NCBI GenBank assembly: GCA_030606485.1
Contig: JAUWGH010000005.1
Span: 30,001-62,000, forward strand
Length of the DNA: 32,000 bases
Direction: 5' to 3'
Source: Promethearchaeota archaeon
GTDB taxonomy: Archaea; Asgardarchaeota; Lokiarchaeia; Sigyniarchaeales; SOKP01
Shown in pieces: positions 3,053-15,929 of this stretch. A model generated the notes under the pieces. That model made no database searches, was not told the origin of the DNA, and saw nothing but the letters and a program-made list of their open reading frames with translations. The translations under genes were made by a program, and so were the position numbers. How positions within the stretch are numbered: the stretch's first letter is position 1; the number at the start of each line of letters is the position of its first letter.

Positions 3053-3149
3053 TTTTGTTTCACAAATTTAATAAACTTAAAAATTAATGATATGCTAGAA
3101 TATTTGATAGTAGTTATTTATTTTTGTCAATTGCCTCGGTGAAGTTATA

Positions 3150-4157
3150 ATCAAAATCACTATAAAAACCCCGTGTAGGGTACACTTCTCTTTAATTGAT
3201 GAGAATGGGTATACTGGCAGAATTGATGGTGGAATTGGTCTTATGTTAGAATCCCCTAATATTGTGATAGAGGTTTCAGATAATTCTGATGGGTTAAAAA
3301 TTGAAATTGATGAACCTCATGATGGATTTTTAACAACCATTAAAGAAAAAACTGAGGCGATAACAAATGCTCTTAATGTTAAAAATAAGAATTACCATTT
3401 CATAATTAAGGAATATTATCCAGAACATTTAGGAATTGGATCAAAAACTCAATTAAGCTTAGCAATCGGTTTAGCAATAGCTAAATTAGAAGGGGCAAAT
3501 TTACCCATAGAAAAGATTACCAAAATAGTTGGGAGAGGAGGTACATCCGGAATTGGGTGGAGGGGTTTTGAACAAGGTGGTTTTATCTTAGATGCGGGGC
3601 ACGATTTCGGTAATGGAAAAGAGAAAGAAACTTACTTACCTTCTTCAGCCTCTTCATCAGCAAATCCAGCTTTAACTCTCATTAGATACCCTATTCCTGA
3701 GAATTGGAGGTTTGTAGTAATTCTTCCTAAAGTAAAACAAGGAGCTCATAACCAAGAAGAAGTAAATATTTTCCAAGAATTTGCGCCCATTAATCGAGAA
3801 GAAGTTAATGAAGTTTCCCATCAAATTATCATGAAAATTTTACCGGGATTAATAAAAAACGATTTAAATTGCTTTGGACAAGGAATAAAACGGATTCAAA
3901 AAATTGGTTTCAAGAAAATCGAAATAGAATTACAAGATCTAATCGTTAAAAAACTAATGAAATTTTTAGAAGCCGAAGGAGTAAAAGCTTATGGAATGTC
4001 CTCTTTTGGACCATGCATAGTTGCAATTACTGAAAATGATGAGTCTGCAAACATTTTAAAACCTAAATGTGAAGAATTTCTTAAAGACTTCGGAGGCACT
4101 GTGATAATTGCAAAACCTAATAATACTGGAGCAGAAATAAAAATTGAAGAAGAATAA
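3150..4157 (+). CDS. mptG: beta-ribofuranosylaminobenzene 5'-phosphate (RFAP) synthase, GHMP kinase family; probable ATC (3150) or ATA (3147) start
   Basis: The frame extends upstream of the ATG at 3243 as KITIKTPCRVHFSLIDENGYTGRIDGGIG, the family N-terminal PxRxH...GRxDGGxG motif. Also HLGIGSKTQL, GRGGTSGIG, GGFILDAGH and GMSSFGP. In-frame TAG at 3111; GGTGA at 3138-3142. Confidence 0.9.
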   Translation: MKITIKTPCRVHFSLIDENGYTGRIDGGIGLMLESPNIVIEVSDNSDGLKIEIDEPHDGFLTTIKEKTEAITNALNVKNKNYHFIIKEYYPEHLGIGSKTQLSLAIGLAIAKLEGANLPIEKITKIVGRGGTSGIGWRGFEQGGFILDAGHDFGNGKEKETYLPSSASSSANPALTLIRYPIPENWRFVVILPKVKQGAHNQEEVNIFQEFAPINREEVNEVSHQIIMKILPGLIKNDLNCFGQGIKRIQKIGFKKIEIELQDLIVKKLMKFLEAEGVKAYGMSSFGPCIVAITENDESANILKPKCEEFLKDFGGTVIIAKPNNTGAEIKIEEE

Positions 4158-13871: not shown

Positions 13872-13975
13872 TGGGATGGGAGGGATTCGAACCCCCGACC
13901 TCTTGGCCCCCAGCCAAGAATTACGCTGTAAAGAATAAGTCTTTACAGAATCATACCAAGCTAGACCACCATCCC
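13872..13975 (-). tRNA. tRNA-Pro(GGG) with a 30-nt intron at non-canonical position 25/26 (intron 13920-13949)
   Basis: Minus strand: GGGATGG-TG-GTCT AGCTTGGTA TGAT-[intron]-T-CTTGG CTGGGGG CCAAG-AGGTC-GGGGG TTCGAAT CCCTC-CCATCCC-A. BHB motif: helix TATG/CGTA, two ATT bulges, 9-bp intron hairpin. No encoded CCA. Confidence 0.93.
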
Positions 13976-14103: not shown

Positions 14104-14394
14104 ATGAGAAAGAGAACGCCATATCTTATTTTTTGGCCCCAGTATTTTGATAAGAATCGAACAATCAATCAAGGTCGTAGATTACCTAAAAATCTTGCAA
14201 TTGAAAAGGTAACTTTAGATGATATAGAGAAGGCGGTGAAAGCATTAGGTTATGAATATAAAATTGAAAATACTTCAAGATATCCAAAGACATGGTGGGA
14301 TAACCCGGGGCGTATTCTCATTGATTCTAAAGGCAAAAAGAAAAGAAAAATATTATTTGAAATCGCAAAGCAAATCAGGAAAATAAAAAGTTAA
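14104..14394 (+). CDS. srp19: Signal recognition particle 19 kDa protein
   Basis: IFWPQYFDKNRTINQGRRLPK...YPKTWWDNPGRILI...KKRKILFEIA. Confidence 0.95.
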   Translation: MRKRTPYLIFWPQYFDKNRTINQGRRLPKNLAIEKVTLDDIEKAVKALGYEYKIENTSRYPKTWWDNPGRILIDSKGKKKRKILFEIAKQIRKIKS

Positions 14395-14414
14395 GTAATA
14401 GGGGAGAAAAAAAA

Positions 14415-14789
14415 ATACACGAGTTTGCTTTTGCATCACAAATTTATCAAACTGCCTTAAACACAGCTATAAAATATAATGCTATTAAAATTACAGAAGT
14501 ATTTTTAGAAATTGGAGAATTTACTCTTATTGTTCCTGAACTTTTAAAACAATCATTTAAAATGGCGACAACAGGAACTATTGCAGAAGGTGCTAAACTA
14601 AACATGCAAGTCACTCCTGGAGAAATTCAATGTAATAAGTGCGGTAAAATAACGACAATTAGCTTTAAAGAAACAGATGCTTTAACGGGGTTGCTGTTAT
14701 TTAAATGTAAGTTTTGTGATTCTACAGATACCAAAATTATTAAAGGAAAATCCGCAATTGTGAAAAATATAAAAATAGAAACAGACTGA
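14415..14789 (+). CDS. hypA: Hydrogenase maturation nickel chaperone HypA; ATA start inferred
   Basis: ATA-CAC-GAG gives (M)HE-FAFASQI...LEIGEFTLIVPELLKQSF. CNKC and CKFC zinc motifs; IIKGK. GGGGAG lies 8 nt upstream; no ATG/GTG/TTG in frame back to TGA at 14358. Confidence 0.9.
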   Translation: MHEFAFASQIYQTALNTAIKYNAIKITEVFLEIGEFTLIVPELLKQSFKMATTGTIAEGAKLNMQVTPGEIQCNKCGKITTISFKETDALTGLLLFKCKFCDSTDTKIIKGKSAIVKNIKIETD

Positions 14790-15173
14790 TTATTCTTTTA
14801 TAAGAACTGCGTTAATAATGCCGTCTTGACCAGGGCGACTTGTTATTTTCGCTAATCCTTTCTCAGTATGAATTATTGCTCCTTTAGTTATAATATGCCT
14901 TCGAGAAAGATCTTTAGAGGCGGGATTTTCCTCAAATCTGAGAATTTTAGTTTTTTCAGTTTTTTTACTTAATGGGTCTGTTAGATTGCAAAAGGAGTTT
15001 GAAAATAATTTTAATTTATAATTCCCACCAAGAACTCTTTGTTTTTTCTTTTTCTCTGTTCCAATTGTTGTTTCTATTGGAGGACTTGCAAGCTCTCTTT
15101 TTCTCTTTTTTCCAAAATGTTTATACTTTTTTCCAGTATATTTTCTTTTACTTCTTTTTTGCGACCTTGCCAT
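14790..15173 (-). CDS. rps8e: 30S ribosomal protein S8e
   Basis: MARSQKRSKRKYTGKKY...RVLGGNYK...ENPASKDLSRRHIITKGAII...ITSRPGQDGIINAVLI. The real start is the ATG at 15173, not the 15302 ORF-track start. Confidence 0.96.
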   Translation of the reverse strand: MARSQKRSKRKYTGKKYKHFGKKRKRELASPPIETTIGTEKKKKQRVLGGNYKLKLFSNSFCNLTDPLSKKTEKTKILRFEENPASKDLSRRHIITKGAIIHTEKGLAKITSRPGQDGIINAVLIKE

Positions 15174-15290
15174 ATTTCTTTTAATTTTTAAAATCTTTAA
15201 AATTTTATGATTTTTGGTATATAGAGAAAAAAAATAAATATTAAAGAACTCATTATTACTTAAATTATATAAAAGATTGTGTAAGCAATT

Positions 15291-15929
15291 ATGAACGAAC
15301 ACATTTTAAAGAATAAATTTGATACACAGACATTAGATAATGTTATCAAAACAGGTACAACTACGGTTGCAATTAAAATAAAAGATGGCGTGGTTGTAGG
15401 TACTGAATCTCAAGCAACAGCGGGATATTTTGTTGCAACAAAACAAGCCCAGAAATTGTTCAAAATAAACGATTTCTGTGCTGCCACGATTAGCGGTGGT
15501 GTAGCTGATTGTCAATATGTTGTGAATCAAGCCATTGCTTTATCTAATCTTAAGACTGTCGAAGAAGAAAAGATCCCTGAACCGAAATATGTTGCTAATA
15601 CCGTTAGGAATCTACTTTATCAGGGGCGTTCATATTTTCTTACCTTAATGATAATTGCAGGGTATTCAGAGAAAGAAGGCATAGGAATGCTATATGGGAT
15701 CGACCTTCTTGGAACTTTATATGAAGAAGAAAAGTTCATAAGTTTTGGTTCTGGTTCTCCCTACTCTCTCGGAGTTTTGGAAACAGAATGGAAAGAAAAT
15801 ATGACTGCTCCAGAGGGATTAAAATTGGTAGAAAAAGCAATAACTTCATCCCGAGCAAGAGATGCAGGTTCAGGTTATAAAATACAATTAGCGACCATAA
15901 CAAAAAGCGGATTTAAGCAAAAGAAATAA
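15291..15929 (+). CDS. psmB: Proteasome subunit beta
   Basis: Propeptide ending KTG|TTTV (Thr1), Glu17, Lys33, TISGGVADCQ, GSGSPY and RARDAGSG. Confidence 0.95.
   Translation: MNEHILKNKFDTQTLDNVIKTGTTTVAIKIKDGVVVGTESQATAGYFVATKQAQKLFKINDFCAATISGGVADCQYVVNQAIALSNLKTVEEEKIPEPKYVANTVRNLLYQGRSYFLTLMIIAGYSEKEGIGMLYGIDLLGTLYEEEKFISFGSGSPYSLGVLETEWKENMTAPEGLKLVEKAITSSRARDAGSGYKIQLATITKSGFKQKK

Follow-up and report, generated by a model that had tools for sequence, protein, structure and literature searches.

A 32,000-nucleotide stretch of DNA from a Promethearchaeota archaeon (GenBank assembly GCA_030606485.1, contig JAUWGH010000005.1), referred to here as the window, carries a hypA gene, encoding the nickel-binding protein HypA, that lacks a usual start codon. 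The evidence set out below indicates that hypA is a functional gene and that its translation very probably starts at the AUA codon at positions 14415-14417, behind a Shine-Dalgarno (SD) sequence. The codons AUA, AUU and AUC (collectively AUH, or ATH in the DNA) appear to act as starts on dozens of unrelated genes of the same genome, so that hypA can be explained without any gene-specific regulation. The best explanation appears to be a lineage that tolerates SD-anchored AUH starts, in which the AUA of hypA would be no special device.

The hypA gene and its start region

The gene and its landmarks, in window coordinates, are the following.

14415 to 14789, plus strand: hypA coding sequence (Pfam PF01155), 124 codons and the TGA stop, read from ATA
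14415 to 14417, plus strand: ATA, the proposed initiation codon, where methionine would be inserted by the initiator tRNA
14401 to 14406, plus strand: Shine-Dalgarno sequence GGGGAG, its GGGAG core beginning 13 nt before the ATA
14407 to 14414, plus strand: spacer of 8 nt, all A, between the SD and the ATA of hypA
14418 to 14423, plus strand: CAC GAG, His2 and Glu3 of the M-H-E nickel-binding motif, invariant in 23 aligned orthologues
14358 to 14360, plus strand: in-frame TGA that closes the hypA frame upstream
14562 to 14564, plus strand: first in-frame ATG of hypA (codon 50), the usual start of gene callers, giving a 75-aa product
14631 to 14717, plus strand: two CxxC pairs of the structural zinc site (C73, C76, C98 and C101), invariant columns

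Translated from the ATA, the gene reads I-H-E-F-A-F-A-S...ETD over 124 residues before the TGA. The open reading frame (ORF; 14415-14786) matches Pfam PF01155 with 88.1 bits against a cut-off of 28.9, residues 2-121 covering positions 2-112 of the 112 in the profile, and hypA is single-copy in the genome (3.75 Mb, 13 contigs, 29.2% G+C). The initial annotation had found no usual start for hypA, and each of its landmarks was confirmed: the ATA at 14415 with GGGGAG 8 nt upstream, the TGA at 14358, the first ATG at 14562 and the 49 HypA residues lost by a start there. None of the 18 in-frame codons between the TGA and the ATA is ATG, GTG or TTG.

The residues most closely tied to function lie on both sides of that first ATG. 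H2, E3, C73, C76, C98 and C101 are invariant in the alignment of 23 orthologues, and the MHE motif constitutes the nickel site (PMC13202556). His2 and Glu3 are encoded directly, while Met1 is present only where AUA is decoded by the initiator tRNA. In the proposed mechanism, the 30S subunit would be positioned by 5-6 base pairs of SD pairing (GGGGAG, 8 nt upstream) and the ordinary Met-tRNAi (CAU) would be accepted on AUA despite the third-position C34-A mismatch, hypA being translated as the second cistron of a unit with the upstream gene srp19. The initiator tRNA would put methionine at position 1, and with histidine as residue 2 it should be left in place by methionine aminopeptidase. The HypA N-terminus would be Met-His-Glu, as the nickel site demands; with methionine retained before His2, the site made up of the Met1 amine, His2 and Glu3 would therefore be preserved.

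The ATA was examined in independent assemblies. Logan contigs from three different studies showed no difference at 14415-14417, with contig depths over the codon of about 5 (X5), 90 (X10) and 9 (X18). The X18 contig derives from a variant strain with six single-nucleotide polymorphisms elsewhere in the stretch, and its hypA ATA is unchanged. This assembly support rests on Logan contigs, and any minority variants at 14417 would fall below contig resolution. The identical ATA is present in two GenBank metagenome-assembled genomes (MAGs), GCA_023128565.1 and GCA_023127985.1, in both of which the annotated hypA product is already the 124-aa MHE... protein that starts at ATA. Support at 14417, checked in this way, consists of ATA in the three independent assemblies and both MAGs, with no ATG; given that five species also have ATA, the codon is therefore no assembly error. 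In a public protein collection, the 75-aa truncation from Met50 accounts for 10 of the 13 members of the HypA cluster.

The start codon was then compared across relatives. Each of the five species-level genomes of this genus, obtained from separate samples and with 77-98% identity at the protein level, has ATA at this codon of hypA. A wider set comprised 95 distinct hypA genes of Promethearchaeota (Lokiarchaeia and relatives); ATG stands at the homologous codon in 87, and the non-ATG starts are ATA (n = 5, this genus), ATT (n = 1) and ACG (n = 2). The ATT-type gene belongs to one species of another genus, whose congener has ATG, and the ACG-type genes to two species of a third lineage. With the whole genus carrying ATA and not ATG, this comparison refuted a lesion confined to a single strain. 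Two sister species have a stop in the hypA frame shortly before the ATA, a TAA two codons 5' of it in G002 and a TAG five codons 5' of it in G003; therefore no upstream start is possible in these two genomes. The spacer between SD and ATA differs in length and sequence among sister species, as expected of an untranslated spacer and not of a slippery site.

A side observation concerns L027 and L029 (G029 and G027, from another family of the order), where hypA has ACG 7 nt after GGGTGA and canonical start codons are absent from the frame until a GTG at codon 13 or 18. The TGA within this GGGTGA is out of frame with hypA and possibly terminates the preceding gene.

The part of hypA that precedes the first ATG evolves as a coding sequence. 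Within the genus, the ratio of nonsynonymous to synonymous divergence (dN/dS) is 0.05-0.19 at codons 2-49 and 0.06-0.13 at codons 50-124, with dS reaching saturation. The position of the first canonical codon varies by species (codon 50, 36 or 29). Clients and partners of HypA are encoded in the genome, namely two [NiFe] hydrogenase large-subunit ORFs (C5:253382; C8:256216-257409), HypD (481 bits) and HypC (100 bits); the searches covered HypA, HypC, HypD and the hydrogenase large subunit. The low dN/dS at codons 2-49, the invariant H2, E3 and zinc-site cysteines and the hydrogenase clients therefore indicate that full-length HypA is under selection.

Shine-Dalgarno pairing, initiation machinery and gene neighbourhood

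The 3' end of the 16S rRNA reads ...GGATCACCTCCTT. In this genome only about 12% of the ATG genes have an SD 5-mer, which begins 11-17 nt before the start codon and most often at 13-14 nt. The GGGAG of hypA, at 13 nt, falls within the preferred spacing. Across relatives, an SD 5-mer at -17 to -6 precedes all eight non-ATG hypA genes and none of the 87 ATG ones (8/8 vs 0/87). The predicted SD/anti-SD duplex has an energy of -7.6 kcal/mol for this hypA; values range from -7.2 to -8.6 kcal/mol over all the non-ATG genes and average -4.0 kcal/mol in the ATG type. The eight non-ATG genes represent only three independent lineages, and nominal p-values overstate the association. Even so, an SD in three of three non-ATG lineages and in none of the 87 ATG genes seems hard to ascribe to chance, and an SD confined to non-ATG hypA is what one would predict if translation truly began at the near-cognate codon and depended on SD pairing. 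The earlier proposal of AUA initiation on an intact hypA is upheld by the independent assemblies, the conservation within the genus, the ATG of relatives, the dN/dS values, the SD spacing and the stops in sister species.

The initiation machinery of the genome appears ordinary. The initiator tRNA gene (G000:C6:44349-44448, minus strand; ARAGORN) is single-copy, has a CAU anticodon, an A1:U72 pair and a GGG/CCC anticodon stem, and is interrupted immediately 3' of the anticodon loop (position 40/41, ARAGORN numbering) by a 21-nt intron. A BLAST search found no paralogue of it in the genome. A special initiator tRNA was considered and rejected, only the ordinary one being found in an ARAGORN inventory (38 tRNAs, in an intron-rich genome) that is incomplete. 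With the intron search on, ARAGORN reported these 38 tRNAs genome-wide and missed the 104-nt tRNA gene at 13872-13975; tRNA inventories of this lineage that are based on ARAGORN will be incomplete.

Loss of aIF1 was likewise rejected as a cause, since a SUI1 gene is present. The one aIF1 gene found (L176:1372-1773, plus strand, corresponding to G000:C6:14364-14765) is a 133-codon frame without any ATG. Its sole canonical candidate before the zinc-knuckle CPKC is the GTG at L176:1411, with AAGGT immediately 5', and an alternative start, ATA, lies four codons after the GTG. The start of aIF1 is apparently an ordinary GTG.

Two further mechanisms were rejected. A change of the genetic code to AUA = Met does not fit the internal ATA codons of hypA, which fall at positions of conserved Ile or Leu, nor would it account for the starts at ATT and ATC. 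A frameshift or fusion from srp19 through the A-run at 14407-14415 does not fit the position of the srp19 stop, which precedes the A-run; moreover, the A-run is unconserved, and G002 and G003 have in-frame stops in between.

The gene lies in a short unit, bounded as follows.

14104 to 14394, plus strand: srp19, the upstream gene on the same strand (Pfam SRP19, 84 bits)
14790 to 15173, minus strand: rps8e (ribosomal protein eS8), convergent, the downstream bound of the unit (Pfam Ribosomal_S8e, 120 bits)
13872 to 13975, minus strand: intron-containing tRNA gene, the upstream bound of the srp19-hypA unit (Rfam RF00005, 42 bits, E 2e-7)

The TAA stop of srp19 lies 20 nt 5' of the hypA ATA, and the srp19-hypA gene order and short spacer are kept in relatives, throughout the family. 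The two genes probably form a bicistronic unit. The rps8e product is called as a 127-aa protein in the GenBank MAGs, starting at the ATG at 15173, where the conserved eS8 sequence begins. The longest rps8e ORF (14790-15302, minus strand), which starts at GTG 15302 and encodes 170 aa, overlaps the start of the divergent gene for a proteasome beta subunit (15291-15929, plus strand).

Starts at both neighbouring genes were also compared among relatives. Non-canonical starts of rps8e (ATC, TTC, TTA) and srp19 (ATT) were considered and rejected, an in-frame GTG lying three codons upstream. Separately, the srp19 gene of L065 (MAG AMARA_1S, SDNY01000024.1) has TTT where 85 relatives have ATG, with GAG GAG ATA AAA directly 5' of the TTT and no canonical codon nearby.

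Probable near-cognate starts elsewhere in the genome and competing explanations

The occurrence of ATH starts genome-wide was assessed in a set of 3165 ORFs that do not overlap and have 100 codons or more, obtained with a home-made filter. In 177 of these long ORFs, a canonical start is missing from at least the first 25 codons. Over the first ten codons of these 177, an SD 5-mer precedes ATA, ATT or ATC in 24 of 269 instances (8.9%), compared with 3.4% for other codons (Fisher p = 2e-4). ATT alone is SD-preceded in 11.8% of cases there, matching the 12% of genuine ATG starts. No excess of SD with ATH was found deeper in the 177 ORFs, and a cruder test on all codons before the first canonical start gave a weak enrichment (ATA 3.5% vs 2.3%); the signal is confined to the first ten codons of long start-less leaders.

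SD and ATH occur together in the first ten codons of 21 genes. Pfam domains were checked for ten of these candidates, and in nine the domain starts within the start-less part. Twenty further long-leader ORFs, drawn at random irrespective of SD and ATH, included five to six that need a non-canonical start and about eight that fit a canonical one. The genes concerned include the following.

L033: SDR, Rossmann motif lost from the canonical start
L034 and L035: two Ras/Arf-type GTPases, P-loops lost from the canonical start
L036: response regulator, domain beginning in the start-less part
L037: ETF-alpha, domain beginning in the start-less part
L038: E2-like protein, domain beginning in the start-less part
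L039: TetR regulator, domain beginning in the start-less part
L041: PfkB kinase, domain beginning in the start-less part
L161: aldehyde:ferredoxin oxidoreductase, GGGTG and ATA (from the random sample)
L167: MinD/ParA ATPase, P-loop 5' of the first canonical codon (from the random sample)
G000:C2:203574-204326 (L032:201-953), minus strand: ribosomal protein eS4, ATA behind AAGGAGTGA

We estimate that about 50-60 genes, or about 1.5-2% of the long ORFs, would need an ATA, ATT or ATC start, which is a lower bound for the filter used. To call this frequency unusually high is to compare it with the literature (10.1101/063800) and not with a control genome. The case of eS4 resembles that of hypA. 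Its RS4NT domain occupies residues 5-38 and its first canonical codon is 49; the start is ATA in three species of the genus (G000, G002 and G003), and ATG in the fourth (G001) and in all other genera. The ATA of eS4 is a separate and more recent fixation of ATG to ATA, in a gene that needs good expression.

The window itself contains a further ORF of this kind, at 3114-4157 (plus strand), with 347 codons of which the leading 43 lack a canonical start. GGTGA is found 9-12 nt before ATA ATC, followed by KITIKTPCRVHFSLIDENG. The N-terminus resembles what we take to be a GHMP-kinase-type enzyme (beta-RFAP-synthase-like), and the ORF probably has another ATA/ATC start.

In this Lokiarchaeial genus of 29% G+C, changes of ATG to ATA, ATT or ATC have apparently been fixed in dozens of genes, mostly behind SDs. 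We tentatively propose, as a serious possibility, that third-position discrimination at initiation is relaxed in the genus, and probably in more of the order. SD-anchored AUH, and occasionally ACG, would then serve as the main start even of a gene such as eS4, and SD and start codon would co-evolve, loss of ATG being restricted to genes that have or acquire an SD.

Several points weigh against AUA initiation on hypA in a lineage tolerant of such starts. We infer from sequence that AUA is used, that methionine is inserted there and that output lies below that from AUG. The organism is recorded from cold-seep or marine-sediment samples; none of the sequencing runs listed for the locus is classed as RNA, and a candidate RNA run (X19) gave no contig over it, a result that speaks neither for nor against. 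In G004 an in-frame ATG is found eight codons 5' of the ATA, with the SD of that genome between the two, and an extended HypA without a free Met1-His2 N-terminus could in principle be made there. The association of SD and start codon comes from just three independent evolutionary events, and the genome-wide estimate is a rough one, obtained with the home-made filter and 30 Pfam checks in this genome alone. Furthermore, a review of archaeal initiation lists only AUG, GUG and UUG (PMC7531240).

The AUA of hypA could instead be an adaptive, gene-specific throttle, in which a weak start combined with an SD keeps HypA low under selection for dosage, in the manner of pcnB- or ccpN-type attenuation. 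We consider this unlikely, although it has some basis in the three independent switches of hypA within one order, to ATA (five species), ATT (one) and ACG (two), when at the same loci rps8e shows no near-cognate switch and srp19 at most one candidate case. The ATA of hypA has also been kept through saturated synonymous divergence without reversion to ATG, and non-canonical starts yield about 10-30% output in Staphylococcus aureus reporters (PMC13009471). However, the estimated 50-60 unrelated genes with ATH starts in the same genome include eS4, which must be abundant, and ATG-type hypA genes have no SD, so that ATA with an SD may restore a similar output. Under strong AT mutation bias, moreover, non-reversion at one site in five species is unremarkable, and a rate test would require more than three events. 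The hypA switches, set against at most one candidate case in srp19 and rps8e, hint at dosage control, whereas the genome-wide spread of such starts and the presence of SDs argue that no gene-specific regulation is needed. Translational control of hypA, which the initial annotation had raised as a possibility, was not established, as ATH starts are spread over dozens of genes including one for a ribosomal protein.

A rather improbable account is that ribosomes terminating on srp19, 20 nt upstream, re-initiate on hypA, and that the relaxed codon requirement of re-initiation permits AUA. The conserved order and short spacer of srp19 and hypA throughout the family agree with it, as does the lack of an SD in ATG-type hypA, which suggests coupling; the ATH-start genes for eS4, the response regulator, ETF-alpha and the SDR lie 1-15 nt behind a same-strand gene. 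Yet genes with SD and ATH are not significantly more often operon-internal, 29% of them lying at most 30 nt behind a same-strand gene compared with 19% for canonical starts, and many come first in their unit, next to genes that are divergent or far away. In hypA, moreover, an SD was gained at every loss of ATG, and pure re-initiation needs none.

It is very improbable that hypA is decaying or that its product is limited to the C-terminal zinc domain (75 aa, starting at ATG 14562): the 75-aa form does predominate in automatic public gene calls and full length has no canonical start, but dN/dS at codons 2-49 is low in the five species, H2 and E3 do not vary, the position of the first canonical codon is unconserved and this is the sole hypA beside two [NiFe] hydrogenases, HypC and HypD. 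Least probable of all is an mRNA that reads AUG, through adenosine-to-inosine (A-to-I) editing or another RNA-level change, or an ATA that is a sequencing or assembly artefact, as at least five independent assemblies and five species agree on ATA, and the ATT, ATC and ACG starts found elsewhere could not be converted to AUG by A-to-I editing. Nothing in the sequence data spoke for either possibility.

Relaxed discrimination of the third position, if true, would provide the first genome-scale set of near-cognate main starts in archaea. For annotation, most public hypA calls are the 75-aa fragment without the nickel site, and dozens more genes are probably truncated alike, among them those for eS4, small GTPases, an E2-like protein and roadblock proteins. 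The small GTPases, E2-like and roadblock proteins are of Asgard "eukaryotic signature" types. Start-aware re-annotation would alter domain inventories and the choice of expression constructs, as the Asgard tubulin illustrates (PMC13394414). A lineage with 1-2% of SD-anchored AUA, AUU or AUC genes would also be a natural system for studying third-position proofreading by aIF1, aIF1A and aIF2, and the trade-off between SD strength and codon strength. With regard to physiology, the start of hypA points to a possible translational setting of HypA supply in these hydrogen-dependent syntrophs.

Comparison with known systems

SD-assisted initiation at AUA is known in bacteria and hardly documented in archaea. 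The hypA case is notable for its occurrence in an Asgard archaeon, its conservation across a genus and its clean co-variation of start codon and SD. As in canonical archaeal initiation, hypA is SD-led and operon-internal, and it is accompanied by a standard archaeal initiator tRNA and aIF1. Ribosome profiling in Haloferax volcanii placed about 30% of putative alternative sites at near-cognate codons, which were set aside as possible false positives (PMC7261190); unlike hypA, those sites are not the main starts of conserved genes.

Within the Asgard archaea, a likely "rare ATT start codon" was inferred for the tubulin gene atubA of a Kariarchaeaceae MAG (PMC13394414), the only Asgard case in the literature that could be searched; searches there on ATA and ATT starts in archaea yielded nothing beyond it. 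As with hypA, the deposited atubA protein is N-terminally truncated, and an upstream ATT restores a conserved N-terminal strand and lies at a plausible distance from a likely ribosome-binding site. Unlike the hypA case, that of atubA consists of a statement on one gene within a methods section, offers no analysis of conservation, selection or genome-wide occurrence, and concerns another gene in another Asgard class.

In Escherichia coli, the AUU starts of infC and pcnB are the only two confirmed non-canonical starts, and AUA, AUU, AUC and CUG gave 0.1-3% of AUG output in reporters (10.1101/063800). hypA resembles infC and pcnB in that AUH is the sole start of an intact, conserved gene with output expected below that of AUG. 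The two systems differ in number, with two such genes in E. coli against the 50-60 or so estimated here. They differ also in regulation, as infC is autoregulated through start-codon discrimination by its own product, whereas there is no reason to expect feedback by HypA. We know of no role of HypA in translation.

The closest mechanistic match to hypA appears to be the AUA and AUU starts of S. aureus and other Firmicutes. Ribosome profiling in S. aureus identified conserved starts at infC (AUA), ccpN (AUA), cvfC1 (AUU) and citZ (AUA), all with extended SDs, and such starts reach about 10-30% of AUG output (PMC13009471). The Firmicutes cases are bacterial, with IF3 proofreading and fMet-tRNA, and were verified by retapamulin ribosome profiling and reporters. 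In hypA the factors are the archaeal aIF1, aIF1A and aIF2, the start is proposed from sequence, and dozens of genes are concerned compared with four. What the two share is a third-position near-cognate of AUG that is conserved among relatives, a strong and well-spaced SD, conserved N-terminal residues and a true start that was missed by gene callers.

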